57,186 bases of DNA from a virus (Duplodnaviria > Caudoviricetes). This document shows positions 4,204 through 57,186 of this stretch, in pieces. The notes beneath the pieces are model-generated. The model had not been told where the DNA came from and ran no database searches. It worked only from the letters and a program-made list of their open reading frames with translations. Position 1 is the stretch's first letter. Each line of letters starts with the position of its first letter. Where the stretch lies: IMG/VR virus record IMGVR_UViG_3300012201_000004, positions 1-57,186 of that record. One strand, 5' to 3'. The position numbers were made by a program, and so were the translations under genes.

Positions 4204-5037
4204 CTATCGACTGTCGCGCTGTACCGATTCTCTATAGATGCGTGCAAAATGCGCATCTGATGTTTCCAAATCTAAGAGAAAACGTGGAAAGCGGTCACCC
4301 TCCTGCTTTGGTTGCTCAATAAACCCCAATGCCCGACACAACTTTTTCCCATCATCCTCATCTGACACCGCATAGAGCCGTCGAATAACAATGTGTCGCT
4401 CTGCCAATTCTCCGAGGAAATCAATAAAACCAGATATGAGACGAAATCCGAAGCGTCGGGTGTGCTTCTCCACATCGGGTCTTACAGCGATGCCGATGTA
4501 CAAATCGTAGGCTCTCCCTGGCTTGTATGCTAAGTAGTCCTGTGGCGTCATATCCCACGAACGCCGTTTGCCGCTCATGATATCTTCTAATGCATCAGGC
4601 TTGAACGGAGCTGCATGGATGTAGCCAGCGATTTCACCATGAAACAGTACCACGTAGTCTAGATAGGGGTTGACGACGTACCATTCTCGTCTCTGCTCTG
4701 GCGTCGTCGTTTGCCATCCTAGCACGGCAAGAACATGTACAATGCCCTCAGCATCTTCAGGTAAAGCTGTGCGTGTCTCTGTCTCTGGCTCCTCTACTGT
4801 AGTCGTATGCAGATACAAAGCCATCTCATTAGCCAATCGATCTATTTCCCTTCTTTCATAATAACCTTCTACTTTCAGAGGCGGCACATATTTCTTGATT
4901 CGACCTTGCCGCACAAGGTAGCTGAAAGCAGAGGGTGTCATTCCTAGTCGCTCACGTGCCTGCTTGGCCGTGTAGTATCCTTGTGGCGCACGTTTCGGTC
5001 CCCCACCGGTCTTTTTTCTCTTCGGTTTTTCTGACAT
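4204..5037 (-). CDS. HTH (MerR/excisionase-like) plus GNAT-fold protein, candidate regulator or repressor
   Basis: YYTAKQARERLGMTPSAFSYLVRQGRI HTH; C-terminal GNAT pattern LYIGIAVRPD...FGFRLI...GKKLCRALGF. Confidence 0.75.
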   Translation of the reverse strand: MSEKPKRKKTGGGPKRAPQGYYTAKQARERLGMTPSAFSYLVRQGRIKKYVPPLKVEGYYERREIDRLANEMALYLHTTTVEEPETETRTALPEDAEGIVHVLAVLGWQTTTPEQRREWYVVNPYLDYVVLFHGEIAGYIHAAPFKPDALEDIMSGKRRSWDMTPQDYLAYKPGRAYDLYIGIAVRPDVEKHTRRFGFRLISGFIDFLGELAERHIVIRRLYAVSDEDDGKKLCRALGFIEQPKQEGDRFPRFLLDLETSDAHFARIYRESVQRDSR

Positions 5038-5046
5038 CTAACCCCC

Positions 5047-5116
5047 TTGACAGCGTGTGAAACCTGTGATATGTTTGACACATAAGAAATGTAACATACC
5101 GAATGGAGGATGTCAA
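5047..5116. promoter_or_regulatory. Face-to-face sigma70 promoter pair (switch region)
   Basis: Rightward TTGACA(5047)-17-TATGTT with TG extension; leftward TTGACA(5116)-17-TACATT. Confidence 0.7.
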
Positions 5117-5555
5117 GTCAGGTACCCCCGCTTAAAAAGCAGGGGGCTTGTAAGTAGGGCCGACTTCTAGCCGTCTCTTGCAAGCCCTGGACCTGACCAG
5201 ACTTAGTTTGCACGTACAGCCTGGAACAATCAGTCTGGTGCAAGCTACCTTACCGGCGAAATAGGTACGTCAGAATACGAGGCCAGTTCTGACCTCTACG
5301 GCATATGGTTAAACAGAGAAACGGGGTCTACTCAGTGCTGTATGCGTTAAACCGTCGGATAAGTTTGTCGAGGCCACCTTTACTTTGTGCGGAAAAGGGC
5401 TGGTTGAGCCATATTCTCAACCAGAGAAAGAGCACCGCACATGCTTCTTTCTCCCCCGTAAGGGGATGGTATTGGCACAAGGCGCGCGCAGCAGAGTGTG
5501 CGCCTTGCATTCCTCCCCTGGCTGAAGCCGTAGGGCTTCCTGAAAGGAAAATCCT
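5117..5555 (+). mobile_element. Non-autonomous IS200/IS605 element carrying a standalone IscB-type omegaRNA (HEARO)
   Basis: GTCAGGTACCCCCG..GGGGGCTTG start, ACCAGACT, ATAGGTACGTCAGAATAC..CCAGTTCTGACCTCTAC, TTAAACAG, TTGTCGAGGCCACCTTTAC, far end CATTCCTCCCCTGGCTGAAGCC..GGGCTTCC; no IscB ORF. Confidence 0.8.
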
Positions 5556-5810
5556 GTGATCGATGCCTATAGGAGAGGCTATCAATCTGGCAGTGAAGCA
5601 TCACACAAAGATCCTCAACTGCGCCTCTTGTCTGAGGAGGCAGTGAGTGATATTGCTCACCGCGTCTTTGCTGGCATGATGAAGCAAGGCTTTGCACACA
5701 TTGAACCAAAGTCGGACTTTATCGTGGGTTTCGTAGAAGGCGTTCAGATATCTTTCCTCCATCAAAATTTCTGTAGCGCGTCAGTAGTATCAAGACGGCT
5801 AACCATGTAG
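5556..5810 (+). CDS. Hypothetical protein
   Basis: GTG start immediately after the element end; AYRRGY and FIVGFVEG motifs. Confidence 0.55.
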   Translation: MIDAYRRGYQSGSEASHKDPQLRLLSEEAVSDIAHRVFAGMMKQGFAHIEPKSDFIVGFVEGVQISFLHQNFCSASVVSRRLTM

Positions 5811-9009: not shown

Positions 9010-10155
9010 ATGTCGTCAGAATTAATCAATCAGTATGTCAATCATTATCAAGGTGAGAAGTACCCAGGTCTGCCACGCTTGGATTACATGCGTCGGTATC
9101 TAGACGGGCTGGTGTCGATCCTAGAGGGGTATCTCATGACCTTCTCGACGATCCTCATCACCATAGGTATAAGCTTCTCAATGTATGATTTCTTAAGCGG
9201 TGGGACTGCTCTCAACGATCCGAACGTTTTCAAAGTTTGGGCGATTGTTCAGACGGTTGCCATAGATGCGCAATTCGTGAATATGTGGTACCGCCTGAAA
9301 GTCTCATTACGTGAGGAGAAACGTTGGCAGGCAGGAGGGTATCTGGTGTTGGGTGTCACGCTGGCATTTGTGACGTTCGGAGCCTCTGTTATTCCCGCGC
9401 TACAGAAGTCGTTAGGACTCAATTTCGACGCGGCAATTTTGCAGGCTGGACTCAACCCAACCGCAATGATTTGGGCACGTTCTTTTGTCGCTATTCTGCT
9501 AGCTATTATTGGAGCATTCCAGCGTACCGTGATCGTGTTCGATAAGTCCGGTCAGATTAAAAATACCGAACAGAAATCGAACACTGCAACACCCGTGAAG
9601 ACTAGCGTAAAACAGCCTGGGTTTTTTGCCAGAAAGTACACCCAAATCACGGCGCTTCTCGCAAAGAAATCGAACAGGTCACAAGATCCTAATGAGGTCG
9701 TAACCGATGGCGGTGAACCCGCTCTGCAAGTGCAACTAGTAGAGGTACAACCGGAAGTAAAAACGGAACCGCTCACATCTGCTAGCAAAGAGACTAAGCA
9801 GCAGAAACCGGAAGCAACGCCGGTAGTCGGGAGCATCATAACACCACCACAAAGAGAGGAGCCGATAACCGACCCTGAGCTAGACACTGCGAACGTGACG
9901 ACCTTCCCCGTGAGTGGGAGCACAAAGGGGCCAAAAACTACCGTCAAACTGAGTGATATTCCGGTAGCTATCGACATCAACAGCCGCCGTAAACCGCTCA
10001 CCACTTCGGAAGCAATGACGATCCTGGGAGTGTCTGAAAAGACGGTACGGGAGTGGAAGAAGTCAGGGAAGTTAGTAGCATCTGCCGACGGTAAAATGAT
10101 TACCGCCTCTTCCGTACGTAGGATGATAGAGAGCAGGCAGGAAAGAGTGTCATGA
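9010..10155 (+). CDS. 4-TM membrane protein with disordered linker and C-terminal HTH (SpdB/DUF2637-like)
   Basis: Four hydrophobic helices, WAxxxxxAID motif, P/T/E-rich linker, LTTSEAMTILGVSEKTVREW. Confidence 0.65.
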   Translation: MSSELINQYVNHYQGEKYPGLPRLDYMRRYLDGLVSILEGYLMTFSTILITIGISFSMYDFLSGGTALNDPNVFKVWAIVQTVAIDAQFVNMWYRLKVSLREEKRWQAGGYLVLGVTLAFVTFGASVIPALQKSLGLNFDAAILQAGLNPTAMIWARSFVAILLAIIGAFQRTVIVFDKSGQIKNTEQKSNTATPVKTSVKQPGFFARKYTQITALLAKKSNRSQDPNEVVTDGGEPALQVQLVEVQPEVKTEPLTSASKETKQQKPEATPVVGSIITPPQREEPITDPELDTANVTTFPVSGSTKGPKTTVKLSDIPVAIDINSRRKPLTTSEAMTILGVSEKTVREWKKSGKLVASADGKMITASSVRRMIESRQERVS

Positions 10156-10478
10156 AAAAAGCTGAATTGGAAGAGCAGCTTGAACAGCAGCGCGCGGTTA
10201 TCATAAAACAGCGCCAACAGATCGACGCGCTTTCGAACCGCTGGCAAGCAGAGCAAGAGCACTGGCAACACGTCTGCGACGAACACAATGCGATACTGCA
10301 CATGCTTGATGATCTCTTTTCGTTCAAGGTCGGTGCAACGGAGTTCGACGGTGATACGCCGCTGTGGGATATCACCGACCGCACAACCGGAGAGCGTCTG
10401 GTCTCGCAGCAACGGGATAGTGCAGAGGCGTATAGGCTAGCGATCTCGAAGAGGGTCAGCTACCCTCCCATAGAATGA
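10152..10478 (+). CDS. Coiled-coil hypothetical protein, 3' end interrupted by IS-derived element
   Basis: The last codons VSYPPIE come from the element end; excision would give ...AISKR-MEAKP*. Confidence 0.6.
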   Translation: MKKAELEEQLEQQRAVIIKQRQQIDALSNRWQAEQEHWQHVCDEHNAILHMLDDLFSFKVGATEFDGDTPLWDITDRTTGERLVSQQRDSAEAYRLAISKRVSYPPIE

Positions 10479-10846
10479 GAGGGCTTGTATCTCTTCTCAC
10501 TCTTGCCAGTGGATCAGAGAAGGATACATTAATCAGAAGCGAACTCCTGACCGTTGGGCCGGCTGACATCAGGGAGCTACCCTTGCCGTCCGTAGACGGG
10601 GCGACCCATACACCAGGCGAAGCGCAAGCTCTCGACGCCAGAACCGTTACCAATCCTTATAGCGAGGTGTACATGAGCCACAGTGGAGTGACCAGAGGCC
10701 CTCCGCGAGCGGAGCGCACGTTGTCCATCACTGTCGCTTCCTACTTATTCTTCTCAACGTGGGGAAAAGCGGAAGGAGAGCATCTGCGGATGCCCTTTCA
10801 TTCCTCCCCTGCTTTGAAAGCAGGGGTCCCCAGAAAGGAAACATCT
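10455..10846. mobile_element. Second non-autonomous IS200/IS605-type element with highly structured interior
   Basis: Ends GTCAGCTACCCTCCC..GAGGGCTTG and CATTCCTCCCCTGCTTTGAAAGCAGGGGTCCCCAGAAAGGAAAC match the ends of 5117-5555. Confidence 0.75.
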
Positions 10847-10908
10847 ATGGAAGCGAAACCGTAGTGCGTCAATTGAGCAACACAATACAAACGAGAAAGG
10901 GAAAGATC

Positions 10909-12517: not shown

Positions 12518-12658
12518 ATGACAGCACAGTGGCCGCAATGGAGTTACAAACCGAATAGGCAGCTACCGCGACACACGGCGTTGGTGCTGGTGTTGGTCGT
12601 GCCGGTTGTGATTGCGGGCGTCGTTGCGTTGGGCGAATTGTTGAGGATATGGCCGTGA
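12518..12658 (+). CDS. 46-aa single-TM protein (below the ORF-track cutoff)
   Basis: SD GAGG; MTAQWPQW...ALVLVLVVPVVIAGVVALG; stop overlaps the ParB start region. Confidence 0.45.
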   Translation: MTAQWPQWSYKPNRQLPRHTALVLVLVVPVVIAGVVALGELLRIWP

Positions 12659-13518
12659 GTGAACAGCGAATACAGGATCTCAAAGAGAATAGAGTCATTC
12701 CTCTCGCCGCCTTATATCCTCATAATAGAAATTACAAAAGTCATCCACCTGAGCAAATACGCAAAATCAAGGCGAGTCTTGAGCGATGGGGTCAAGTTCG
12801 GAGCATTGTCATCAAAGACGATGGCAACGGCTCATATACCATCGTTGCCGGTCATGGTGTGGTAGAAGCGGCACAACAACTCAAGATGAGCGACCTGCGT
12901 GCCGATGTTTTCCCTCAATGGGTTCCTGATGAAGAAATACTCGGGTATCTTGTGGCTGATAACGAGCTCGGCAATGACGCTGTAGATGATACGGAACTTT
13001 TAGCAAGCCTCCTGCAAGAGCAACAAGATGCGGGGTACGATCTGGCATCAATGGGTAGTGATGAGGAGACGTTGCGGCAGATGTTGGAGAGCCTGGGTGA
13101 TGAGTATGTGGGGGATGGTGAAACGCAAGAGGAGGAGGAAAGTGGAAGTCTCTTATCTTTACTGGACATCACTATAGCCGATCCTCGCCATGTGGTGTCG
13201 TCTGGCGACATCTGGAAGATGGGCAAACATACTCTCGTCATTGCCCATGTCTTCAAGGACTGGCATATCTGGACGCAGTACCTCAAAGATGAGTCGTGTT
13301 TATTCCTTCCGTTTCCTGGCCCGATGGTGGCACTTTCCGATAAGGCAGAGGAGTATACCCTCGTGCTCGTCCAACCTGACGCCTATATCGGCGGGCATGT
13401 GCTAGACCGCTACGCCGATATTCACGGTGAGAAGAGTGTTAAGAAGATTGAGCATGTGCAAGTAAGTGTGTTGCGGGAGGATGAAGCAGAGGTAGAGGAG
13501 GATATGGAGAATGAGTAG
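12649..13518 (+). CDS. ParB/Srx N-terminal domain protein associated with DNA modification
   Basis: LYPHNRNYKSHPPEQI..SLERWGQ..IVAGHG..A, YLVADN. Confidence 0.85.
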   Translation: MAVSEQRIQDLKENRVIPLAALYPHNRNYKSHPPEQIRKIKASLERWGQVRSIVIKDDGNGSYTIVAGHGVVEAAQQLKMSDLRADVFPQWVPDEEILGYLVADNELGNDAVDDTELLASLLQEQQDAGYDLASMGSDEETLRQMLESLGDEYVGDGETQEEEESGSLLSLLDITIADPRHVVSSGDIWKMGKHTLVIAHVFKDWHIWTQYLKDESCLFLPFPGPMVALSDKAEEYTLVLVQPDAYIGGHVLDRYADIHGEKSVKKIEHVQVSVLREDEAEVEEDMENE

Positions 13519-14449
13519 CGTCATCCGTACCGGTGGAGGCACCTTTGACCCACACGAGGAAAACGTATACTTTATCGCTTCGGGCGCTGAACAATTAGCT
13601 ATCGCTGAAGAGGTGCATCATCATCTTCTTATCGCAGTAAATGAAATTGAAAGCAGCGAGTCTTTAGCGTGTTTAGATAGATGGACGAAAGACAATAGGA
13701 AACGCATTTTCCTTGACTCTGGCGTGTTTAACTTGTCTATGTCCTATGCGCGCAACCACAATGTTTCTATGGATACCGCCTTATCTCTAGATCCTACTGA
13801 AATTGATGGCTTTGATAAACTATGGGAGCAATACGTATCACTTGTTCTCAAGTATGGCGATAAATTGTGGGGGTATATCGAGATTGACCAGGGCGGGCGT
13901 GAGAATAAGATTAAGACTCGCGCCAGGCTCGAAGCGTTGGGATTGCGTCCTACTCCCGTATATCACCCCCTTAATGATGGATGGGACTACTTTGATTACC
14001 TGGCAGAGCGATATGATCGTATTTGCTTTGGAAATATTGTTAAGGCGAATGCATCTACCCGTCAACGCCTTATCGCAACTGCTTGGGAACGGCACCGTAA
14101 ATACCCAAATTTGTGGATACACTTTCTTGGCTTAACTCCTAATCAGTGGCTCAATGCTATGCCACTGAACAGCGGAGACTCTTCATCATGGCTTCACCCT
14201 ATTCGTTGGACAGTCTATCCATCATCGTGCGATGGTCAACAATTTAGCGAGATGGGAAGAGGATATCGCTATCTACTTCAGAAGGATGGTGGTGAGACTC
14301 ATGCTGAAAACGGCTCAGCCAAGGCTATTAAACTGTGTGGCTACAAATCTCGTATGGATATGCTTACTTGGAGACGGCATATGAACGATCTGATCTCACT
14401 CGGTTTTGAGAAATATCCCGCGCCGCAATGTGAGGTGACACATGGGTAG
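13511..14449 (+). CDS. dpdA: DpdA-like 7-deazaguanine DNA transglycosylase (TGT fold)
   Basis: IFLDSGVF, EIDQ, PVYH, HFLG and DSSSW motifs; adjacent to queD/queE/folE. Confidence 0.8.
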   Translation: MSSVIRTGGGTFDPHEENVYFIASGAEQLAIAEEVHHHLLIAVNEIESSESLACLDRWTKDNRKRIFLDSGVFNLSMSYARNHNVSMDTALSLDPTEIDGFDKLWEQYVSLVLKYGDKLWGYIEIDQGGRENKIKTRARLEALGLRPTPVYHPLNDGWDYFDYLAERYDRICFGNIVKANASTRQRLIATAWERHRKYPNLWIHFLGLTPNQWLNAMPLNSGDSSSWLHPIRWTVYPSSCDGQQFSEMGRGYRYLLQKDGGETHAENGSAKAIKLCGYKSRMDMLTWRRHMNDLISLGFEKYPAPQCEVTHG

Positions 14450-14786
14450 AATGCTTGCAGTTGTGCGCTTCACGCGTGAGGGCTGGCACTCGTGGCCCGA
14501 CGCGCCAGAGTCACGCGCTTACCTTGCCTCACTGCATCGACACCTGTTTCATGTGGAGGTGCAACTAGAAGTGTTTCATGCTGAGAGGGAAGTTGAGTAT
14601 CACGATCTCCTTGATTTCTGCAAAGAGCATTTCCATGGTGGAGATAGGGGTGGAGTCTCCTGTGAGACAATGGCGAAAGGGTTAGCACAAAGAATTACCG
14701 CTCGGTTTCCAGAGCGGTGGGGGCAGGTGTCGGTATTTGAGGATAACGAGGTGGGAGCTGTTTACTCCTGGGAGGTACAGAGATAA
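14442..14786 (+). CDS. QueD-like T-fold protein, DpdL-like (putative CDG decarboxylase)
   Basis: HxWP, LASLHRHLF (LxxxHRHxF), SCE..A, VSVFED. Confidence 0.65.
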   Translation: MGRMLAVVRFTREGWHSWPDAPESRAYLASLHRHLFHVEVQLEVFHAEREVEYHDLLDFCKEHFHGGDRGGVSCETMAKGLAQRITARFPERWGQVSVFEDNEVGAVYSWEVQR

Positions 14787-14935
14787 TGGTGGGTAGTGGC
14801 AGACGTAACGACAAGTCGGTCTCCATTGGTCAGCGCGTAGACATGACCAAGCTCGTTCTGCTCGTAGTCCTCTACCATGTCAGTATACCCAAGTGTTTCA
14901 ATCAGATTGTCAGCCTGTTCAATAGTGGTGTTCAT
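14762..14935 (-). CDS. Antisense moron-like small protein with its own promoter
   Basis: SD CAGGAG; TTGTCA-17-GATACT at 15009-14981. Confidence 0.6.
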   Translation of the reverse strand: MNTTIEQADNLIETLGYTDMVEDYEQNELGHVYALTNGDRLVVTSATTHHYLCTSQE

Positions 14936-15053
14936 GTTGTTTTTCTCTCCTGTATAATAAAACATTCATTTGATGACTCTAGTATCACCTATCTCGCGCA
15001 ATATGACAAGCGGCTTTACTGGCATATTCTTCCCATTTTTCGAGGGAGTACTT

Positions 15054-15413
15054 ATGTACACAATTAGCAAGCAGTTCGCGTTTAGCGCATCGCACGCGTT
15101 ACTTCATCTTCCAGATGGACACGTATGCAAGAGACTGCATGGTCATAACTACATGGTGGAATTGCTCTTGCGCCGCCCTGCGCTGGATGGGAGCGGCTTT
15201 GTGGTGGACTACAATGACATGAAACCCTTTGGGCTGTACCTTGACGAGCACCTTGACCACCAACATCTGAACGACGTGCTTCCAGACATGCCTCCCACGG
15301 CTGAGAACATTGCGAAACATTTGTACGGGATTGCCTGGGAGATGTTTCACGATGTCGCTATCACGGTACGGGTGAGCGAGACGCCAAAGACTTGCGCAGA
15401 GTACACACAATGA
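15054..15413 (+). CDS. queD: 6-carboxytetrahydropterin synthase
   Basis: FSASH, CKRLHGHNY, LDHQHLN, PTAEN, VSET. Confidence 0.92.
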   Translation: MYTISKQFAFSASHALLHLPDGHVCKRLHGHNYMVELLLRRPALDGSGFVVDYNDMKPFGLYLDEHLDHQHLNDVLPDMPPTAENIAKHLYGIAWEMFHDVAITVRVSETPKTCAEYTQ

Positions 15414-16108
15414 GCAAACTTACCATCTCAGAGTGCTTTGGGCCAACGGTGCAGGGTGAAGGTGCCTTGATCGGGAAGCCCACCGTCTTTGTACGTACTG
15501 GCGGGTGCGAGTATCGCTGTTCCTGGTGTGATACCCTCTATGCCGTCCTCCCTGAATATAAAGACGAGTGGCGGCAGATGAGTACCCAGGAGGTGTTTAC
15601 TGAAATACAACGCTTATCGCCAAAGCCTATTCTCGTGACGCTCTCAGGTGGCAATCCAGCGATACAACCACTCGGAGACTTGATCGACCTGGGACATCAG
15701 CACGGGTACACCTTCTGCATGGAGACGCAGGGAAGTATAGCACGGTCCTACATGCGGCGGCTGGATTATCTCACGTTATCGCCTAAGCCACCATCTAGCG
15801 GGATGAAAACACGGTGGGAGCGATTAGATGGATGCTTCGAGACAGAGGCAAGTGTATTTCTCAAGGTGGTGGTATTCGATGACGCCGATTATGCCTATGC
15901 TCAACATATTCATGAACGGTATCCAACAACGCCAATGTACTTACAACCTGGGAATGCTACACCTCCACATGTGGGAGCATTCGATATCGAAGGGGTACTC
16001 AGTAAGACTCGTTGGCTCATTGAGAAGGTGACACAGGATCAGTGGAATGAGGTCACGGTGTTACCACAACTCCACACTCTTTTGTGGCAAAACCAGAGGG
16101 GGATGTAA
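15410..16108 (+). CDS. queE: 7-carboxy-7-deazaguanine synthase (radical SAM)
   Basis: FGPTVQGEG, RTGGCEYRCSWCDT, SGGNP, ETQG, SPKPPSS, LPQLH. Confidence 0.95.
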   Translation: MSKLTISECFGPTVQGEGALIGKPTVFVRTGGCEYRCSWCDTLYAVLPEYKDEWRQMSTQEVFTEIQRLSPKPILVTLSGGNPAIQPLGDLIDLGHQHGYTFCMETQGSIARSYMRRLDYLTLSPKPPSSGMKTRWERLDGCFETEASVFLKVVVFDDADYAYAQHIHERYPTTPMYLQPGNATPPHVGAFDIEGVLSKTRWLIEKVTQDQWNEVTVLPQLHTLLWQNQRGM

Positions 16109-16110
16109 AG

Positions 16111-16674
16111 GTGTCTGAGGTAAATTATCAAGCGTTGCTTACAATAGGGCGTGAACTGCTACAAGCCATAGGGGAAGACCCTGAGCGAGAGGGGATCAAG
16201 GACACGCCACGTCGTTTTGCAGATTGGTGGAAAGAGTTCATTGACTACCAACCTGGAAGTCTTGATACGTGTTTCGAGAGCATCACGACCGACCAAATGG
16301 TGACGGTATCAGGTATGCGGGTGTGGAGCCTCTGTGAGCATCATCTCCTCCCATTCTGGTGTGATGTCTCTATTGGGTATATCGCAGGTGAACAGGTTTT
16401 AGGATTATCGAAGTTTGCGCGGATCGCTCACAAGTATGCTCATACCTTGCAACTCCAAGAGCGATTATGTCACCAGATCGCCGATGAGATTACACGGATT
16501 GTCGGCACTGAGGATGTGGCGGTGTTAGCGCGTGGGCGACACCTGTGTATGGAGATGCGCGGTGTGAGGACACCTGGACTTATGTCCTCGTCCGTGATGC
16601 GTGGTTTGTTTCGTGATAAGAACGAGGCCCGTATGGAGTTTTTGCAGTTGGTGAAGGAGTCAAGACATGACTGA
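16111..16674 (+). CDS. folE: GTP cyclohydrolase I
   Basis: GEDPEREG, TPRR, SLCEHHLLPF, GLSKFAR, QERL, HLCMEMRG. Confidence 0.95.
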   Translation: MSEVNYQALLTIGRELLQAIGEDPEREGIKDTPRRFADWWKEFIDYQPGSLDTCFESITTDQMVTVSGMRVWSLCEHHLLPFWCDVSIGYIAGEQVLGLSKFARIAHKYAHTLQLQERLCHQIADEITRIVGTEDVAVLARGRHLCMEMRGVRTPGLMSSSVMRGLFRDKNEARMEFLQLVKESRHD

Positions 16675-17209
16675 TACCCGCAAACCATCCTTACAAAAAA
16701 ACACGAGTAGCCATGTCCGTACCAGCGCCCGCCGCCCTGGTCATCGTCTCACCGAAGAGCAGACGCACGAGGCACAAGAGAAGTTCCTCAAAGCTTTTGC
16801 CTCCAACGGTAATGTACGTGTCGCGTGTACCGCCGCTGGCATTGACCGCTCAACCGTTCACGCCTGGACTGAGCATGACGAACAGTTCTCGATGGAGTAC
16901 AACCTTGCTAAAGAGGATGTCAACGATGCGATCCGTGCTGAGATCTATAGACGCGGCATGTTTGGAGAGGAACGCTTTGTCGTCGCTCAGGGGAGGATTG
17001 TCAACGGGCCTGATGGGAAGCCGCTCACGTACCGGGAGAAGTCGGATACGCTACTCATCTTCCATGCAAAGAGTCGCATGCCTGAGTATCGAGATAAGCA
17101 ACAGGTAGAGCATTCGGGAAGCATTGATGTTTCTGGCGCGGCTGAATCACTCTTTCAGAAGGTGGCGATGGGTATGTCTCAAGAGTCGGAGGCACCCAAA
17201 GATGGGTAG
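16667..17209 (+). CDS. Terminase small subunit
   Basis: GNVRVACTAAGIDRSTVHAW HTH, SDTLLIF..K...PEYRD; directly precedes TerL. Confidence 0.8.
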   Translation: MTDTRKPSLQKNTSSHVRTSARRPGHRLTEEQTHEAQEKFLKAFASNGNVRVACTAAGIDRSTVHAWTEHDEQFSMEYNLAKEDVNDAIRAEIYRRGMFGEERFVVAQGRIVNGPDGKPLTYREKSDTLLIFHAKSRMPEYRDKQQVEHSGSIDVSGAAESLFQKVAMGMSQESEAPKDG

Positions 17210-18665
17210 TGCCGTTTCTCGCGTCCCCATGACCGATGAATACTTCCAGCGATGCCGGTGGTTTGCCCATCAGCCACGCGAGAAGAAACTGGAAATCATC
17301 AAGACGCTCAGCGACGAAGAAGCACTTATTTTCAAATATACGTGGGAAGCATGGGCGCGTGACAAGCAATTGGCACAGATAGAGGCTCCTGGGTATCGTT
17401 GGAGGAACTGGATTCACCTTGCGGGCCGTGGGAATGGGAAGACGCGAACGGGTGCGGAATGGATACGACAGCAGGCAGAGAGTAACAAGATTGAACGTAT
17501 GATCCTCGTTGCTCGCACCGCCGCCGATGTGCGAGATACGATGGTCGAGGGAGAGAGCGGCATCCTTGCCATTAGTCCCCCCTGGTTCGCGCCTAAGTAT
17601 GAGCCATCAAAACGGCGGCTTACGTGGCCTAATGGGAGTATGGCGATCACTTTTAGCGCAGATGAACCTGATGCGCTCCGTGGGCCTCAGTGCGCGAGGG
17701 CATGGGCAGATGAACGCGCATCTTGGCAGTATGACCAGGCGTGGGATAACCTCATGATGGGTATGCGTTTAGGCGAAGATCCTCAGTGTATCGTGACGAC
17801 GACACCGCGCCCGACAAAGGCCATCATTGAACTGAAGAAGGCGAAAACCTCTAAGGTTACGGTAGGCGTGACCTATGAGAATAGAGATAACCTTGCACCG
17901 TCATTTCTCACCGAGATATTACGCAAGTACGAGAATACTCGCCTGGGCAGACAGGAGATCTATGCTGAAATCCTCGAGGATATCGAAGGGGCGCTCTGGA
18001 ACTATGCCATGTTGGAGCGGAACCGCGTGGTCAAAGCTCCTGAATTGGTGCGTGTCGTGGTGGGCGTCGATCCGTCTGTGACCAATAATGAAGACTCTGA
18101 CGAGACGGGTATCATCGTAACGGGCCTGGGTGTTGATGGACATGCCTATGTGTTGGCAGATTACACTATCAAAGGCTCCCCGCTAGAATGGGCAACCGCC
18201 GTTGTGACTGCCTATCACCTGTTCCATGCTGATCGCGTCGTAGCTGAAGTGAACAATGGTGGAGATCTCGTAGAGCAGAATGTGAAGCTTGTTGATGAGA
18301 ATATTTCCTACAAGGCGGTTCATGCTTCACGCGGGAAGATTACCCGTGCTGAGCCGGTTGTGGCAATCTACGAGCAGGGGCGCGCTCACCATGTCGGCAA
18401 CCTGGCAAAGCTGGAAGACGAGCAATGTACATGGCTGCAAGGAATGAAGTCACCTAATAGGCTGGATGCGTGTGTTTGGACAATAAACGAACTAGTGTTG
18501 AATAGCGGTACTATCCCTCTTGTTATTTCTACAGGCGGCACACCCAATCCACTCCCACCATTCAACACGGTAGAAGACGAAGAAGAGAATGCCCGCTTGC
18601 AGGCAGAGCAAGAGCGCCGCGCCAACATCGTCGGGGTGCTACAGAGACTTGGAGGACTGATATGA
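17202..18665 (+). CDS. Terminase large subunit
   Basis: AGRGNGKTR Walker A, LRGPQ, WADE, TTTPRP, VGVDP nuclease domain, SPNRLDA. Confidence 0.95.
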   Translation: MGSAVSRVPMTDEYFQRCRWFAHQPREKKLEIIKTLSDEEALIFKYTWEAWARDKQLAQIEAPGYRWRNWIHLAGRGNGKTRTGAEWIRQQAESNKIERMILVARTAADVRDTMVEGESGILAISPPWFAPKYEPSKRRLTWPNGSMAITFSADEPDALRGPQCARAWADERASWQYDQAWDNLMMGMRLGEDPQCIVTTTPRPTKAIIELKKAKTSKVTVGVTYENRDNLAPSFLTEILRKYENTRLGRQEIYAEILEDIEGALWNYAMLERNRVVKAPELVRVVVGVDPSVTNNEDSDETGIIVTGLGVDGHAYVLADYTIKGSPLEWATAVVTAYHLFHADRVVAEVNNGGDLVEQNVKLVDENISYKAVHASRGKITRAEPVVAIYEQGRAHHVGNLAKLEDEQCTWLQGMKSPNRLDACVWTINELVLNSGTIPLVISTGGTPNPLPPFNTVEDEEENARLQAEQERRANIVGVLQRLGGLI

Positions 18666-18838: not shown

Positions 18839-20731
18839 ATGAGCCGACACAAGAAACGCCGTGGGACACTCAAGCCCGTTCCCGTGATGGCACAGGATGC
18901 GTATCGTCAGCTCGTCGAAGCGGTGGAACGCGCGAACGCTACAACGCCCCCAGGCCGCAATGCTGACCTCTCAGAAGCGGGTCGCATCCTCTCAGCCAAT
19001 CCCGCGCTCGTCACGATGCTGCAAGCCGTACAGGACCGTGAGTACGCCCGTCAAGATGCCCTTGCCCGTCTGGATGTGAAGGGCGCTCCCACAGGTGCAT
19101 ACCCACAGGCAGGGATGGCGGGATGGACAGGGACAAAGAACTACCCTCAAGGCGTCCCGAATGCTCGCCTCTTGCGTGATTGGGCGGATACGAATGAATG
19201 GACACGCGCCGCGATCAATGCCCGCCGTCAACAGGTTGAACGCGCTGACATCGCGGTCCTGCCCAACGATGAGAGCAAGCCCTATAACAAGCCGGTCATG
19301 AAGGCCATTCAGCAGCTCCTCGACCAGCCCAACGAACTACGCGATAGTTGGCGCTCGCTCATCGGGCCGGTCCTAGAGGATGTTCTGGTGTTAGATCGGG
19401 GCGTCATCTCGAAGAACATGACCGCCTCGCGTAAGCCGACCGCACTCTACTATGAGGACGGGAGTACGATCAAGATTTACCCTGAATGGTCAGGCAACCC
19501 AAAGGAGCCGCGCTATCTGTATGAGGAGCCAGGAAGCAACAACAAGAAACCGTTGCTCAATGATGAACTTATGGTCATCATGGCGAACAGCGCGTCCTAC
19601 CGCTACGGTCTCTCACCCGTGCAGGTGCTTCGTCAAACGATCGTTGCCGACCTTGAGGCCATGCGGAGCGGAGCCGACCTCGTAGCGAACAAGCCGCCTC
19701 CCCATGCTCTACAGATGACCGGTGCCAGCGATACGCAGATACGCGGCTTTATCAATGCGTATGACAACGAGATTGCCGGGCGGAAGCAACTCTTTGCCTT
19801 TGGCGGTCCCCAGGAGGCACACCTCTTCAAACTGGTGTATTCCGCGAAAGATAACCAGTGGATGGAGTGGCAAGAGTACCTTGCGCGTAAGATCTGCGCC
19901 ATATTCCAGATTAGCCCGCAACAAATCGGGTTGACCTTCGATATTAACAAGGCGACGGCTGGCACGCAACAGCAGATCTTTGAGGATACGGGACTGATCC
20001 CCTTGCTGCTGTTGTTGGAGGAGTACCTGAACCGTGAACTGCTTGCTGACTTTGCACCCAAGCAATCAGGAGACCGCTTCAACCTGGATGCGCTCAACTT
20101 GCGCATCGTGTTTCCAGAGGTGTCAGAGGCAGCAAGGCAGGTACACCTTGAACGCATGTTGTCGATGGCAGAGACGGGGCTAGCAGGACTGCCATCACAG
20201 ACGCCCAATCAGGTATTAATGGCGATGGGGCAGGAGCCTATCCCTGGTGGCAATACTTTATGGGTCATGACGACAAATGGCCCGATGCCCTGGTTGTCAT
20301 ATGACAACGAGTATGGGGACTATCAACCACCGATCACGGGCGGTCAACTTGGCGCTCAAGATGTGGCTGGCGGGCCTTCGGATAGCTCTGACGATGACTT
20401 AGGACTCAATGAGGATACGTCCTCATCGGAGAGTGATAGTAACGCGGCTGAGGCGGCTCAGAGTGCTTCTAGCGGCGGTTCACCCAATGGCGATGCTCAA
20501 TCATCTGAGAAACGCATGGTGTACCGTGATGTACGCCGTCCTGGGGTCAAGTGGAGTCCTACACTCCTCACATTAGCGCATGGCCGCCCGATGCCTGAGC
20601 GTCTTGCTCGTCCACATCGCACAGCGGAAGAGGAGCAAGCACAGCGGGTGTTAGAGCAGGCTGTGAAACGGGTGTTCGATGGTGCTGCGACACGTGGGAC
20701 GTCGGCATTGAAGGAGAGAGGAAAGTCATGA
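18839..20731 (+). CDS. Portal protein (HK97-like) with acidic C-terminal extension
   Basis: LLDQPN, YGLSPV, ARKICAIFQISPQQIG, TPNQV..GQEPIPGG. Confidence 0.9.
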   Translation: MSRHKKRRGTLKPVPVMAQDAYRQLVEAVERANATTPPGRNADLSEAGRILSANPALVTMLQAVQDREYARQDALARLDVKGAPTGAYPQAGMAGWTGTKNYPQGVPNARLLRDWADTNEWTRAAINARRQQVERADIAVLPNDESKPYNKPVMKAIQQLLDQPNELRDSWRSLIGPVLEDVLVLDRGVISKNMTASRKPTALYYEDGSTIKIYPEWSGNPKEPRYLYEEPGSNNKKPLLNDELMVIMANSASYRYGLSPVQVLRQTIVADLEAMRSGADLVANKPPPHALQMTGASDTQIRGFINAYDNEIAGRKQLFAFGGPQEAHLFKLVYSAKDNQWMEWQEYLARKICAIFQISPQQIGLTFDINKATAGTQQQIFEDTGLIPLLLLLEEYLNRELLADFAPKQSGDRFNLDALNLRIVFPEVSEAARQVHLERMLSMAETGLAGLPSQTPNQVLMAMGQEPIPGGNTLWVMTTNGPMPWLSYDNEYGDYQPPITGGQLGAQDVAGGPSDSSDDDLGLNEDTSSSESDSNAAEAAQSASSGGSPNGDAQSSEKRMVYRDVRRPGVKWSPTLLTLAHGRPMPERLARPHRTAEEEQAQRVLEQAVKRVFDGAATRGTSALKERGKS

Positions 20732-26527: not shown

Positions 26528-26842
26528 ATGGTAGAGACTCAAACAAAGGGGCGTGGTTGGTTCCGTGTTTCTTGGAAGGTCATACCCTTCCTACTGGAAA
26601 AGGGATTGCTTCTGCCTCCTGACTATCAAGTTGTAGAGGTTAGCGATTCTCTTCCCCGTATTGGGGAGGACAGTATCACGATTGTAGTAGAGAGTGAGCA
26701 TATTCCTGCCGTTGGTGATGATGAAGCATTGCCTGAAATCGTGCCTATCTACGCACGCGAGGACGATCAGGTGTTTCTCGATCGCATAGAACTCACAGAT
26801 GGAACAGTACTCTACAAACGGGAGGTGGTAGGCAATGGGTGA
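26528..26842 (+). CDS. Hypothetical protein
   Basis: SD AGGAG; V..GEALPEI motif. Confidence 0.6.
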   Translation: MVETQTKGRGWFRVSWKVIPFLLEKGLLLPPDYQVVEVSDSLPRIGEDSITIVVESEHIPAVGDDEALPEIVPIYAREDDQVFLDRIELTDGTVLYKREVVGNG

Positions 26843-29384
26843 AACACTTGTTGCGCCGTATGTTGCAGAACAAGGCTTGCTCAATGCCTGCCTTGGTCGT
26901 GGTGCTGACTTTGAGGTGTATACCGATGCGCTCAAAGTCGATGAGAATGCAGAGCCAGGGCACTATATCGTCAACATGATCGGATCGTCCACAGTGCAGG
27001 ACTTGCAAGGCGACATTATGAAAATGTCTGCACTTGACGATATGACCACAGTACCGGATGGCATGCTTATCTGGCTAGATCATTCTTATTCCGTTCCATC
27101 CGACCTCTTCGGCTCGCTCTATGGTCGTCCCTGGATCAAGTCGGCAAGCGGCATAGCTGACTTGCATTTGTCTGCTGAGGTGGAAACTGACAACCCGAGA
27201 GCACTGCAAACCTACAACATGATCACGAAGGGTCGTCGTAAGTTCGGATGTAGCATAGGCTGTCAGGTGCTTGACTATGAATATGACGATACAATAGATG
27301 CATTAATAATAAATCGGGTACAAGTGGTAGAATGGTCGGTAGTTGGCATACCAGCCCAACAGAGATGTTGGGTAGAGATCGCTACCAAGTCACTCTTTGA
27401 ACGCTCATTGCTTGACGGGCGCGGTGATGACGCGCTCCGGCTTGCTCCCGCCGTCAAGGGGATGCATTCACGATCCTATGACACGATCCTCAAACATATC
27501 GAAAGCCCAGGACTCCGGCGCGATCTTGAGCATGTGACACCTCGCGGGACATCTCCTCATCGTATCATGACCGCCTTTAATGATGGTGAGGCTGGTTTCG
27601 CGCTAGTAGACCGCAAAGGTATCACGAAGTCTCTCTCCCGCGATGAAGTAAGCACATTATTAGCAAAGGAGCCTACAATGGATGACCTCACCGCGAAAGC
27701 TGCAACCGGTAAAACGTCATGGCCGCTTATGGACATCAGGACCGAATGGACTGGCAGCAAAGCAGAGAAGCAAATATTTGCCTGGGCGCGCAATGATCAG
27801 GATGAGATTGTCGCCAGCAAAGCAAAACAGTGCTTCTTATACTGTAATCCCGATGACAGCGATAAACAGTCTGGATACAAAATGCCCTTCTGCTATATCC
27901 CAGGTGAAGCACCCCAGATTGTTCCGTTGGGCGTCCGAGCGGCAGCCGGAGTCTTGGCGGGCGGAATGGGCGGTGGAAAGTTCGGCGGTGACGATGCCGC
28001 CATGAAAGCCAAAGTCAAGACGATGTACGGGCGCATCAATAGTCAATTTAGCCCTGATCCTGAGTGGGTTGTGCCGTGGGAGAAAGACGACAAAGAGAAG
28101 AGTGTCGAGAAGGACATTCTCGGTACTGATAGCGGCGGGGAATTGATACGCCAAGACCTCGCAGAAAATGGAGATGACATGGAAGTAACGAAAGCCGCCG
28201 ATGTCAAGGTTGCCAGCGATGGCACACATGAGGCATGCACCGGATCTCATAGCCACGCACATAAGGCGTTTGGAACGCAAGGCAACGATGAGCAGCATTC
28301 ACATGAGCACAGCCACGATGGAGACTCGGCGCATGAGCACAGCCATGCTGAGAAAGCTGCTGAAGCTGAGCATACCACTGAGAGCGAGCCTGAGAGGGTC
28401 AAGGAAACGCTGCAAGAAGAGACACATACCGAAGTGGTAGACCCTGCTCGTATCGGCCTTCTTGCGGCGTACAACACCATAGGGAAGCAGTTGGGGTTCG
28501 ATGAGCAAACACTCGAAAAGAAATCCATCGACAATCCTGCTGATATGCAAGCGGCTATCTCCTGCATCTCTGAAGCTGATCGCTATATCGATCAGGCAAT
28601 GGCGCTTCTTGGCATTCCCGATGCTGACGATGTTGACGATGTTGACGCTCCTGCACCTTCAGGCCCGTCGCCACTGCTCTATAGCATGGATGCACAATTC
28701 ACTAGGTCACTCAGAGACTTCATGGTCAAAGAAGGCCGTGAGTTGAGCACCGCTAATGTTGCCGTGATTAAGACCATGCATGATCTCTGTGCGTCGATGC
28801 ATCCCGACGTATGCAAGGGTGCGTCAATGGGCAATCAAGGGACCGACGTAGAGAATGCGCGACAAGATGCAGAGTACCAGATGGGCAATGAGAACGGGGC
28901 AGGCAAAGCATACGAGCCGTTGACTGAGGCGATGCAATTGCTTGCTAAGGCGTTGGACAATCTACATATCCCTGCTATCACGAACGAGGTTCAGCAGGCA
29001 CAAAAAGCGTTGGACACGATCAAACAGCAGATCGGCGCGAAGGACCGTGAGCTGAAGACGCTCAGTAGCAATATTGCCGCGCTCAGTAATGCGCCACTTG
29101 GCCGCCCGACGCAACTCAACCGCTCCATTGTTGGTGAGGCGTCGTATGTCGATATGAAGCTTGCAAGCGGTGAGCGCGTCACTCCCCAGGACATCCTCGC
29201 GCTTACGAGCGTCAAGGCCATCGGGCAATCGCGCTATCGCTACTGGCCATCTGAGGTCGGGAATGGTATGCGTCCTGAACTTTCGACGGATCAGAAAAGC
29301 CTCATGCACCCTTATGATGTTATTGCCTATCAGGACGGCAAGGAAGCGTATATTCCCATGATCGATGACCCTGTTGGCATCTAG
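26835..29384 (+). CDS. Prohead protease (HK97 type) fused to extra domain, His-rich tract and scaffold
   Basis: DLQGDIM, WLDH, GCSIG, EWSVVGIPA; C-terminal coiled coil. Confidence 0.85.
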   Translation: MGETLVAPYVAEQGLLNACLGRGADFEVYTDALKVDENAEPGHYIVNMIGSSTVQDLQGDIMKMSALDDMTTVPDGMLIWLDHSYSVPSDLFGSLYGRPWIKSASGIADLHLSAEVETDNPRALQTYNMITKGRRKFGCSIGCQVLDYEYDDTIDALIINRVQVVEWSVVGIPAQQRCWVEIATKSLFERSLLDGRGDDALRLAPAVKGMHSRSYDTILKHIESPGLRRDLEHVTPRGTSPHRIMTAFNDGEAGFALVDRKGITKSLSRDEVSTLLAKEPTMDDLTAKAATGKTSWPLMDIRTEWTGSKAEKQIFAWARNDQDEIVASKAKQCFLYCNPDDSDKQSGYKMPFCYIPGEAPQIVPLGVRAAAGVLAGGMGGGKFGGDDAAMKAKVKTMYGRINSQFSPDPEWVVPWEKDDKEKSVEKDILGTDSGGELIRQDLAENGDDMEVTKAADVKVASDGTHEACTGSHSHAHKAFGTQGNDEQHSHEHSHDGDSAHEHSHAEKAAEAEHTTESEPERVKETLQEETHTEVVDPARIGLLAAYNTIGKQLGFDEQTLEKKSIDNPADMQAAISCISEADRYIDQAMALLGIPDADDVDDVDAPAPSGPSPLLYSMDAQFTRSLRDFMVKEGRELSTANVAVIKTMHDLCASMHPDVCKGASMGNQGTDVENARQDAEYQMGNENGAGKAYEPLTEAMQLLAKALDNLHIPAITNEVQQAQKALDTIKQQIGAKDRELKTLSSNIAALSNAPLGRPTQLNRSIVGEASYVDMKLASGERVTPQDILALTSVKAIGQSRYRYWPSEVGNGMRPELSTDQKSLMHPYDVIAYQDGKEAYIPMIDDPVGI

Positions 29385-30786: not shown

Positions 30787-32019
30787 ATGGAAACTTTTAC
30801 CCAGGCGTATCACCCCTCTGATCCACAGTACATGATCAAGAGGCAGCGCCAACTCAAAGAACTTTCCTCACTGTCCACGGCGCAACTCAAGCGCATGGTC
30901 AATAGCATGCTCACTAATCCTCTCCCTGAAGAGGCGAAGGAGCAGAACACCCAGGTCGCTAAACAGTTTGTTGGTCAGTTGCATGATGGTGCACTCCATC
31001 CAGCACTACGCCGCAGCATTCTCGATAGCACAGGCGGCGGTACATCGGGCGGTTCGGTCATGATCCGTCAAGACCTGGAAGTGCCTTTATATCTGCTTTT
31101 TGTTCGCAAGTTCCCATTTTACGAGAGAATAGAAGCGGGACCGTCGAATGGCTTAGTTCACGCATACAATCAGGTCACAGCCGTTGACGCTAATGCACTC
31201 GGCTCCTCGGTCATCACAGAGACAGGGGCCGTTACCTACTCTTCAAGCACTTATGCACGCGGCGCGACTACACCCATTGCGGTGTTTGCACAGGGTCGTG
31301 GCGTTACCCTCAAAGAGATTGCAGCGGTTCGTCAAGGCGGCGCGGCCTATGACCCTGCAAGGCAGGAGCTTGCCGATGGCATGACTCGTCTGAGCACGGA
31401 TACGCAGTACTTCATGTTTCAAGGGAATGCCACCAACTCTAGCGGTACAGCCGCGCAGGAGGCAGGACTCTACAATGCGAACGGTATTGATGGGGTACGT
31501 GGTGTGCTCGGCTCGGCTGGTTCCTTCTCTACCAATGGGGCGATCCAGGTGGATGTCGGTAGCCTCAATACTACAGAGAGCATCCAGGTAGCCGCAACGA
31601 AAGCCGCGAACAATGGCGGCAATCCTACCGCCGTCATCCTCTCGATCAACGCGAAGCAGGCCGTAGACATCGAGAACCAGGGCAACAAACGCTATACGGA
31701 CAATACCGTCGAGATTATCCCAGGTGTCGATACGACGCAGATCCCCTACGCCAATGGCATGCTCACACTCGTACCGGTTCCTGGCAACACGATCGGCACC
31801 TACAACCGCACGTCCGATAGTGCGCTTGTCGAGGACATTTACATCCTGGACGAGAGCACGATCAAACGGCGTTGGCTGTATTCTGAGAGCTTTACCACAT
31901 TGCAGATTCCATCAGGCGTAGACGGTGTACTATCGGACCGCTGGATCATTTTTCAAATGTCGGGACTAGAGATTGCCGCGCCGCTTTTTTGCGCGAAGGT
32001 GAGACGGCTCGCGGCTTAG
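30787..32019 (+). CDS. Major capsid protein (HK97 fold)
   Basis: Position after protease; N-terminal delta-like segment, then GGSVMIRQDLE, FQGNA, IDGV, FCAKV. Confidence 0.85.
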   Translation: METFTQAYHPSDPQYMIKRQRQLKELSSLSTAQLKRMVNSMLTNPLPEEAKEQNTQVAKQFVGQLHDGALHPALRRSILDSTGGGTSGGSVMIRQDLEVPLYLLFVRKFPFYERIEAGPSNGLVHAYNQVTAVDANALGSSVITETGAVTYSSSTYARGATTPIAVFAQGRGVTLKEIAAVRQGGAAYDPARQELADGMTRLSTDTQYFMFQGNATNSSGTAAQEAGLYNANGIDGVRGVLGSAGSFSTNGAIQVDVGSLNTTESIQVAATKAANNGGNPTAVILSINAKQAVDIENQGNKRYTDNTVEIIPGVDTTQIPYANGMLTLVPVPGNTIGTYNRTSDSALVEDIYILDESTIKRRWLYSESFTTLQIPSGVDGVLSDRWIIFQMSGLEIAAPLFCAKVRRLAA

Positions 32020-43116: not shown

Positions 43117-43637
43117 CGCGTCGAGAGCATACCGCACGGGAGCATGGAATAGCACTCCTTGCAGGAGAACAAGACTTCTCCGAAGTGACGATTGATGAGT
43201 CGTGTGAGTGGGACGAGGAGGCGATAGAGCAAGCGTATGAGCAGGCACGGACACTGGATACGTGCGATCCGGCGGCAGCAAAGCAGTTGAGAGCACAGGC
43301 GCACTATGCACAACAGAGAAAGAGGGGACAGGTATCAAGTGATGAGACGATGCTACTGGGCAAGACGTACGATCCGATGCGACTCTACGCTCGCATGGCA
43401 AAGTACTATGGCTTCTCTCATCGCACGATGGACACAATGCACATTCCAACTTTCTTTGGCTATGTCCGTGAGGCGTCCATTATGATCGACGAGGAGCAGG
43501 CAGAGATCGACAAGAAGAACAAAGCAGGCAACACCGCAAAGCAACCGCTCAGCCCACAGGAGGCGGAGGCGTTCGTCAAGCGCGAGTTTGGGGTAGCGCA
43601 ACCGTATCCTGGGGAGGTCGTGGCGTATGCAGGGTAA
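43077..43637 (+). CDS. Tail assembly chaperone -1 frameshift extension (gpT-like)
   Basis: -1 frame is open from the slippery site to 43637; YYGFSH..MDTM. Confidence 0.75.
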   Translation, partial: FRRALPPDDEQSVARREHTAREHGIALLAGEQDFSEVTIDESCEWDEEAIEQAYEQARTLDTCDPAAAKQLRAQAHYAQQRKRGQVSSDETMLLGKTYDPMRLYARMAKYYGFSHRTMDTMHIPTFFGYVREASIMIDEEQAEIDKKNKAGNTAKQPLSPQEAEAFVKREFGVAQPYPGEVVAYAG

Positions 43638-51799: not shown

Positions 51800-51914
51800 G
51801 AGGTTTACAAGGCAATTTCCCATCTCGTCAAAAACCCGTCTACATGCTATACTCAGAGTGAGAGCCTGCGCGCCATGCGTCGGGCGTTTTTTCTTGTTCA
51901 AAAGGACTCATTGT

Positions 51915-56803: not shown

Positions 56804-57186
56804 GTCATGAACCCCCGGCTGAAGCCTGGGGGCTTGCAGTCATCTTTAACCGAACAGACGATTGTTCCGGCTGTTCTCAGATGCCACGATGGGTTGCATG
56901 ACGGCAGCCCTTGAGATGTTGATGGCGGCGTTGCGATCAGCGTTATCGGTGTAGCCGCAGTTCTGACAGACAAAGGAGGCTTGACTCTTGCGATTGGCTT
57001 TCTCGCAATGCTTGCAGACCTGGCAGGTCCGCGAGGTATTGCGTGGGTCTACCGTATGCAAGAGAACGCCAGCAAGAGTCGCCTTGTACTGAAGAAAGAA
57101 ACGAAGTTGCCAGAAGGACCAGGAGGAATGGCGAGCACGCTGAGACTTTCTTAACCGTGCCTCCGTACGCGTACGGATGTGCCTTA
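56804..57186 (-). mobile_element. IS200/IS605 element right end with reRNA (continues beyond the window)
   Basis: Minus-strand end GCCCCCAGGCTTCAGCCGGGGGTTCATGAC after tnpB. Confidence 0.85.
56846..57186 (-). CDS. tnpB: TnpB RNA-guided nuclease, C-terminal part
   Basis: SWSFWQLRFFLQYKA, VDPRNTSRTCQVC, FVCQNCG, NADRNAAINI. Confidence 0.93.
   Translation of the reverse strand, partial: RHIRTRTEARLRKSQRARHSSWSFWQLRFFLQYKATLAGVLLHTVDPRNTSRTCQVCKHCEKANRKSQASFVCQNCGYTDNADRNAAINISRAAVMQPIVASENSRNNRLFG

Follow-up and report, generated by a model that had tools for sequence, protein, structure and literature searches.

A stand-alone IscB-type omegaRNA transposon in the divergent intergenic region of a tailed phage

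The window analyzed here, a linear 57186-base record of a tailed phage that is estimated to be 48% complete, carries a protein-less mini-transposon of 439 bp at positions 5117–5555 (plus strand), in which several boundary alignments delimit a right end, an omegaRNA, and a left end of the ISC/IS605 type. Its identity as a stand-alone, non-autonomous IscB omegaRNA transposon that has retained both ends is secure. Its boundaries, family, and insertion point were observed directly, as were the absence of both IscB and TnpA from the window and the abundance of IscB in the likely host class. The element is best explained as a protein-less derivative of an IscB transposon that is selfishly retained, or homes, through an IscB of the host, and we give this explanation a probability of roughly 60%. 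Transcription, loading into host IscB, cleavage, and homing would follow the mode known for this family and are plausible by analogy with it.

Anatomy and boundaries of the element

A cmscan search placed the Rfam family HEARO (RF02033) at positions 5117–5383 of the plus strand, with a score of 118.4 bits (E = 7e-24) over model positions 1–211 of 211. The gathering score of RF02033 is 83 bits, and HEARO was the sole Rfam match at or above the gathering score across the 57186-base window. The first-pass annotation, which had recognized HEARO and omegaRNA landmarks in the sequence and proposed a covariance-model search to check them, was confirmed on this point. Compared with the Rfam family, the match is full-length, but its alignment contains two insertions of about 28 and 24 nt, and no HNH or IscB ORF adjoins it. 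The match and the covariation among relatives identified 5117–5383 as an IscB-type omegaRNA scaffold (HEARO core). The first HEARO hairpin (positions 5125–5146, plus strand; CCCCCGC-TTAAAAA-GCAGGGGG), located from the sequence and the cmscan alignment, is at the same time the subterminal hairpin of the right, omegaRNA-side end of the transposon, and relatives of the element have corresponding hairpins at both ends.

On the 3' side of the HEARO match, an internal stretch (5384–5497, plus strand) contains three hairpin-forming segments, as read from the sequence. This stretch may represent the 3' portion of the omegaRNA; it was alignable in part among IscB-less copies, and RF02033 is described as a model without downstream structural elements (Meers et al., PMC10055086). 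The possibility of an IscB remnant concealed in 5384–5497 was rejected, as neither tblastn nor HMMER gave a signal. The left transposon end occupies 5498–5555 (plus strand), as assigned by its identity to the ends in contigs L005–L008, and includes a hairpin at 5516–5535 and a Shine-Dalgarno-like GAAAGGA at 5542–5548. Outside the element, the 5' flank in the guide position (5097–5116, plus strand) reads TACCGAATGGAGGATGTCAA and contains GGAGG at 5105–5109 and, on the other strand, the −35 box of a predicted leftward promoter, as seen from the sequence and a promoter scan. At the 3' side, the alignment of ends assigned the position of the target-adjacent motif to GTGAT (5556–5560, plus strand), whose GTG serves as start codon for the gene that follows.

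The 5' boundary between 5116 and 5117 was established by many independent copies elsewhere that begin matching at window position 5117 (query base 21). All 13 copies inspected start with GTCA or GTCG, preceded by sequences that are unrelated to one another, and in a metagenome contig with another copy the differing flank stops exactly at 5116. At the opposite end, positions 5498–5550 showed 92–98% identity with the ends of elements from four Chloroflexota contigs (L005–L008), of which L006–L008 are labelled as Chloroflexia and Ktedonobacteraceae. The five aligned ends consist of a conserved block followed by 4–5 variable bases and, in 5/5, by TGTGA, which sets the 3' boundary between 5555 and 5556 with the flank GTGA(T). 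Because GT is present at both junctions of the 439-bp element, the cut can be placed 2 nt either way while the sequence of the empty site remains unchanged. These copy alignments, with boundaries at 5116/5117 and 5555/5556, bear out the earlier description of a 439-bp element with both IS ends. The contig L006 contained a complete element on one strand, in which HEARO (134 bits) is followed by a 432-aa IscB and then by an end like that of the window; the 432-aa protein has the Pfam domains RRXRR and HNH and scored 451.6 bits with NCBIfam guided_IscB.

Profile searches of the 57186-base window, the record being estimated as 48% complete, gave no IscB match at E ≤ 1 and no match to Y1_Tnp (TnpA), the positive control for which was found in 10/14 known genomes. 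The two ORFs overlapping the element (5305–5559 and 5380–5709) matched no family. The statement that the element lacks IscB therefore stands, and tblastn gave no match in the relatives either. An assembly artefact was rejected on the grounds that independent assemblies bridge the junctions: in three sequencing runs (up to three studies, dated 2017–2019), contigs span the two filled junctions without any difference, and L066, a separate metagenome contig, shows 100% identity over a stretch of 2496 bases that includes the element. The element is a stable component of the phage.

The layout was compared with those of described systems. In the elements of Meers et al., the right end contains HEARO, with iscB downstream of it, and HEARO has the same placement and orientation in the window element (PMC10055086). 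Those authors took HEARO upstream of an iscB ORF, within about 500 bp, as their criterion (PMC10055086), whereas the next ORF in the window is an unrelated 84-aa gene and no IscB is present; the copy is therefore a stand-alone one, still a member of the RNA family. The ISC2 elements of Ktedonobacter racemifer are described with a GTCA 5' terminus, subterminal hairpins, and no target duplication (Kapitonov, Makarova and Koonin 2016, PMC4810608). The window element resembles ISC2 in terminus, hairpins, and target, but ISC2 elements are 1.3–1.7 kb long with IscB (PMC4810608), whereas the window element is 439 bp long without it. According to the same paper, ISC ends are common to TnpB-only IS605 elements, in which tnpB is oppositely oriented (PMC4810608). 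As a separate observation, the same end also follows a TnpB gene in L005 (unpublished genome G001), with an orientation that is not reconcilable with the published layout.

Insertion site and target motif

Genes to the left of 5037 run leftward and those from 5556 rightward, so that 5038–5555 constitutes a divergent intergenic region. A consensus scan predicted a rightward promoter (TTGACA-17-TATGTT; 5047–5075, plus strand) and a leftward promoter (TTGACA-17-TACATT; 5088–5116, minus strand), each matching the consensus at 10/12 positions; the scan found these two sites against 0.7 ± 0.7 in shuffled sequences, a count of consensus matches only. Both promoters of the first-pass annotation were thereby recovered together with their geometry, in which the element begins about 35 nt downstream of the predicted start of the rightward transcript. 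Its placement of the leftward −35 box within the guide flank also proved correct, the consensus site (5116–5088, minus strand) abutting the insertion point. No intrinsic terminator was found by scanning between the predicted rightward promoter and the gene, the element included, and no RNA runs containing the stretch were found in a search of sequencing runs.

The first rightward gene (5556–5810, plus strand) encodes 84 aa, and the leftward gene (4204–5037, minus strand) encodes a 277-aa protein with a weak N-terminal match to HTH_17 (19.5 bits, below the cut-off of 27). Among the 169 genomes of the class survey introduced below, homologues of the 277-aa protein occurred in 83, often with many per genome, and a homologue of the 84-aa gene occurred in one. 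The latter, L049, is a 1577-base contig of genome G091 that contains the same gene pair without the element and also the best match to the 277-aa protein (69% identity). In the orientation of the window, the start of the leftward gene in L049 is followed by TTGACT-17-TATAAT, a GGGGG ribosome-binding site, and a TTG-started ORF of 70 aa. The 84-aa ORF was 46% identical to this 70-aa ORF (E = 5e-19) in an ungapped alignment that begins at the first residue of both, which indicates that a real gene starts at the GTG at 5556. From the colinearity with L049, it follows that the element lies exactly between the native GGAGG (5105–5109) and the GTG start. The native GGAGG ends 7 nt before the junction, and the GAAAGGA of the left end is again 7 nt before GTG; it is plausible from this spacing that the GAAAGGA in the transposon end serves as a replacement ribosome-binding site. 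The split of ribosome-binding site and start codon had not appeared in the first-pass annotation, nor had the two further related elements of the phage.

The same annotation had referred to this region as a phage switch. Two overlapping divergent consensus promoters are indeed present, but the HTH_17 match is below threshold and neither an integrase nor a CI-type repressor was found among the 76 ORFs scanned in a record estimated as 48% complete, so that a switch is not established.

We then examined the sequences that follow related left ends. RTG follows 17/17 of these ends, counted over the loci and the window, at 3–7 nt past GAAAGGR, and the flanks read RTG(R); the window has GTGAT, in contrast to RTGAA or RTGG in the majority of relatives, a difference that might alter the efficiency of cleavage. 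GAAAGGA is missing from other variants of the left end. The 3' flank GTGA, as originally proposed, fits both this pattern and the target sites GT|GA and N|ATGA reported for Ktedonobacter ISC elements (Kapitonov et al. 2016, PMC4810608). In addition, the motif of Geobacillus IscB (G. stearothermophilus), TTCAT, corresponds to ATGAA on the omegaRNA strand, and TnpA and the nuclease are described as recognizing a common transposon-adjacent motif (Meers et al. preprint, PMC10055086). Two of the 17 ends run off their loci; an ORF of at least 60 aa starts at the RTG in 8/15 judgeable ends, compared with 28% of 4761 RTGR sites in the same loci, and in 6/13 when the two ends of the unpublished genome G001 are left out. 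By inspection, several of the ORFs starting there have N-termini resembling signal peptides or membrane helices. The start-codon pattern is a tendency, and it is explained by a target motif that resembles a start codon together with selection against disruptive insertions.

The first-pass annotation had also stated that the guide matches the element-free allele. This is true by construction and not special to the present element: the guide is the flank adjoining the transposon end (PMC10055086), and the match to the empty site is therefore automatic for every IS200/IS605 omegaRNA and provides no evidence of a function directed at phages. It had further suggested looking for empty alleles, and none was found in metagenome contigs, assemblies, or viral contigs. 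Specifically, no contig joining 5116 to 5556 was found in four soil-metagenome runs, in which contigs can drop rare variants, and the 40-base left flank had no exact match in viral contigs. The 19-base guide had eight matches in metagenome contigs, none of them followed by GTGA; one was the same phage with the element (L066), and the other seven were unrelated chance sequences. Within the window, no second guide site was found with up to 3 mismatches. L049, the sole related locus found to lack the element, has diverged too far for the guide to target it.

Relatives of the element and its proposed mode of persistence

The survey of relatives covered 169 genomes of the class to which genome G003 belongs, three of which are flagged as unpublished (G001, G078, and G123). 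DNA matches to the element were found in 47/169 genomes. The closest relatives, with 70–84% identity along the scaffold, are likewise short elements with both ends and without IscB. Ten loci matched from scaffold base 1 (L009, L014, L017, L020, L022, L023, L025, L026, L028, and L029), and two that matched from base 63–70 (L024 and L027) were counted with them once their starts had been located. L020 and L022–L029 are short, two-ended, IscB-less elements, and L009 is truncated; tblastn found no IscB within approximately 1.5 kb of the closest scaffold copies at 11 loci. Scaffolds linked to IscB matched only the 3' half of the scaffold of the element (69–80% identity), and their 5' half differs.

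Ten IscB-less copies share a common fold with 72 predicted pairs, 40 of which show compensatory changes. This proportion indicates that the RNA structure has been under selection, at least in the past of the family; the covariation could stem from IscB-linked ancestors rather than from present selection. With respect to mobility, copies are distributed over many genomes of the class with unrelated 5' flanks, metagenome contigs contain further copies with other flanks, and sequencing depth inside the element is 2–10 times the depth of the flanks.

IscB exceeded the curated cut-off in 92/169 class genomes and was present in all five genomes (5/5) holding the closest IscB-less copies. Cross-tabulation gave IscB in 46/47 genomes with a DNA match to the element, a tally that is partly circular because many of the matches are IscB-linked scaffolds. 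G091, the source of the element-free locus L049, contains an intact IscB. From these genome contents, the supply of IscB in trans by the presumed host class (Ktedonobacteria) is plausible. For action in trans, the scaffold subfamily of the window, the 5' half of which differs from that of the IscB-linked scaffolds, would have to be compatible with such an IscB.

On the basis of these data, the following course of events can be proposed for selfish retention or homing through host IscB. A Y1 transposase (TnpA) from the host, probably a member of Ktedonobacteria, would have inserted the element at an RTGA-type target, one that coincides by chance with the start codon (GTG) at which the first rightward gene begins. 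The GAAAGGA of the left end probably keeps this gene translatable, so that the insertion could be tolerated. Transcription from the predicted rightward promoter would yield an RNA in which the 20-base flank, as guide, is followed by the omegaRNA scaffold and then by the gene. A compatible host IscB loaded with this RNA could cut phage copies in which the flank is joined to GTGA, namely genomes from which the element has been excised or, during co-infection, siblings without it. With an element-bearing genome as the repair template, the element would then be restored or passed on. Such homing would be selfish for the transposon and would not require a benefit to the phage, which is speculative.

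Meers et al. described a guide that lies outside the element and a nuclease that cuts the donor joint left by excision, and they reported minimal protein-less elements in G. stearothermophilus, the omegaRNAs of which would need TnpB in trans (PMC10055086). Stand-alone omegaRNAs in host chromosomes were described by Altae-Tran et al. (2021), as reported in PMC11610941. The window element is similar to PATE-like derivatives of IS200/IS605 in having both ends and an omegaRNA but no nuclease or transposase gene, so that the enzymes would have to come in trans. It differs from these and from the stand-alone omegaRNA cases in residing in a phage, in the leader of the first rightward gene and behind a predicted promoter; a limited literature search turned up no published example of a phage with a stand-alone omegaRNA of the IscB type.

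The most serious rival is that the element is an inert passenger, inserted by chance and tolerated in a leader that has a replacement ribosome-binding site, with an RNA that is unused and will decay or be lost. This would agree with the lack of IscB and TnpA in the window, with the failure to find an empty allele in contigs or a matching RNA run, and with the second protein-less element of the phage, which persists in a degraded state with an interior of 11.9 bits on HEARO; survival in tolerated places is, moreover, expected from selection alone. Nevertheless, the scaffold is full-length and high-scoring, the IscB-less family retains its structure across genomes, and IscB is widespread among the likely hosts' class, all of which argue against inertness, and we regard this explanation as credible but unlikely.

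Other readings assign the element a role in competition between phages. A gene drive consisting of the guide only, in which the omegaRNA made from an early promoter of the phage would direct the IscB of the host to the early control region of co-infecting element-free siblings and so convert or exclude them, while a left end adapted to start codons would supply a ribosome-binding site and avoid any cost, is rather improbable in our estimation. Slightly less support is given here to the view of the first-pass annotation that the omegaRNA is a weapon of the phage, which with host IscB would destroy or convert co-infecting relatives lacking the element at their early control region and thereby cause superinfection interference or marker exclusion. 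The geometry would permit it, the guide coming from an early transcript and the target lying within the intergenic region of early genes, and the element was present in every contig covering the site, in three runs. The concept is also in print: homing endonucleases of T-even phages cause marker exclusion between co-infecting phages, and non-restorative homing of transposons against co-infected phages or plasmids is a category in Table 1 of the same 2026 review (PMC13565253). The proposed action would be similar in principle to T-even marker exclusion, in that an element-bearing genome directs the cut and repair copies the element (PMC13565253); it would differ in its division of labor, with the nuclease provided by the host and just the RNA guide by the phage. 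However, the match between guide and empty site exists by construction and is hence no evidence, searches of metagenome contigs and assemblies yielded no competitor allele, contigs cannot reveal rare variants, the viral collections searched yielded no relatives of the phage, and the action would depend wholly on a host enzyme; a weapon is accordingly a poor candidate.

It is very improbable that the 439-nt structured RNA is a co-opted leader acting mainly in cis (on translation start, on RNA stability, or as an IscB sponge): the parting of the native GGAGG from GTG, with GAAAGGA supplied at the same spacing, and the excess of ORFs at the RTG after related ends would suit it, but the target motif and selection against disruptive insertions explain this pattern.

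Since stand-alone omegaRNAs are known, what distinguishes the present case is the location in a phage, the position separating a start codon from its ribosome-binding site, and the presence of two related elements. It would be a compact natural system for asking whether a mobile element can spread with nothing but an RNA guide, by means of a nuclease encoded elsewhere, and whether phage competition is affected as a result. The placement between a ribosome-binding site and a start bears on how elements survive in compact genomes. Overall, the element is a thoroughly documented case and does not establish a new principle.

The phage and its other related elements

The record encodes genes typical of a tailed phage, including a terminase small subunit (16667–17209), a terminase large subunit (17124–18665), a portal (18839–20731), a prohead protease domain (within 26835–29384), a major capsid protein (30787–32019), a tape measure protein (43627–47487), and an endolysin-like protein (51858–53588). 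A 7-deazaguanine gene set comprising tgt/DpdA-like, QueD-like, QueE-like, and GTP cyclohydrolase genes is located at 13511–16674; modified G in the phage DNA might hinder an RNA-guided nuclease.

Searches for relatives of the phage gave few matches. With the 277-aa protein as query, viral contigs yielded one weak partial match (L004, 37% over 52 residues), and a pattern search of genome contigs yielded none; the 527-aa protein had no match in viral contigs, and the element had no blastn match among INPHARED phages. Two viral contigs that matched an 18-base conserved word of the scaffold were rejected as chance, as they showed neither HEARO nor similarity to the window.

Two further elements of related type were identified in the window. 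The second protein-less element, at about 10455–10847, starts with GTCAGCTACCCTCCC and has a left end 80–84% identical to the ends of L017, L020, L024, and L033. It cuts the last codons of the gene at 10152–10478, and its pieces matched 12/169 class genomes. The third element, from 56804, has a like end and a partial HEARO match (17.4 bits). It encodes, on the minus strand, the C-terminal 112 residues of a TnpB truncated where the record stops (Pfam Cas12f1-like_TNB, 76.7 bits; NCBIfam guided_TnpB, 81 bits), an orientation that fits the opposite-orientation, TnpB-only layout of Kapitonov et al. (PMC4810608). The three elements indicate that the phage has been colonized repeatedly by this transposon family and carries a TnpB of its own. 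A 20-base exact copy of the hairpin of the first element was also found at 273–292 on the minus strand.

A truncated third element carrying a TnpB gene

A third element of the same transposon family as the first element, the 439-bp protein-less transposon with a HEARO omegaRNA scaffold, was found at positions 56804–57186, where it begins with a right-end hairpin at 56804 and is cut by the end of the record. On its minus strand (56846–57184) it encodes the C-terminal 112 residues of a TnpB, whose coding sequence is cut off where the record stops, and its flank, GGAGGAGAGAT, resembles a ribosome-binding site. A TnpB borne by the phage in this way could allow homing by itself.

A second protein-less element and a possible transposon-end remnant in the window

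The window also contained a second protein-less element of the IS605/ISC type (10455–10847, plus strand), with a hairpin-bearing start (GTCAGC...) and a left end at 10795–10847 that was followed on its 3' side by ATGGA. The interior of this element scored only 11.9 bits for HEARO, and the element replaced the final codons of the gene at 10152–10478. Pieces of it had matches in 12 of the 169 genomes of Ktedonobacteria, the likely host class. Additionally, the right-end hairpin of the first element had an exact 20-base match at 273–292 on the minus strand, with ATGAG 16 nt after this match; this copy may be the remnant of a solitary transposon end. Within the first element, an 84-aa ORF (5305–5559, plus strand), for which no family matches were found and whose terminal TGA overlaps the GTG start of the first rightward gene (GTGA), is probably spurious.

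Related elements in Chloroflexota contigs

Two loci of one genome, L007 and L008, each carried an element of approximately 390 bp (1646–2034 in both) with the same left end as the first element. These two elements were 94% identical to each other, lacked HEARO, and were directly followed on the 3' side by a GTG-started gene, encoding a histidine kinase in one case and an ABC permease in the other. Because they have internal sequence in common with the TnpB-side region of the third element, they are probably protein-less elements of the TnpB type. At a further locus (L005 799–2034; genome G001, unpublished), a gene for a 373-aa TnpB was followed by the left-end sequence on the same strand, an orientation at odds with the layout published for TnpB elements that have ends in common with ISC elements (PMC4810608).

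Other genes of the phage

A gene set for 7-deazaguanine DNA modification occupied positions 12649–16674, comprising ParB-like/methyltransferase-like, tgt/DpdA-like, QueD-like, QueE-like, and GTP cyclohydrolase members; no QueC was recognized among the scanned ORFs of the window. The 277-aa protein encoded leftward at 4204–5037 had no Pfam, PHROG, or NCBIfam family match except a weak one to HTH_17, and its relatives occurred in 83 of the 169 class genomes, with a top copy number of at least 14 per genome.
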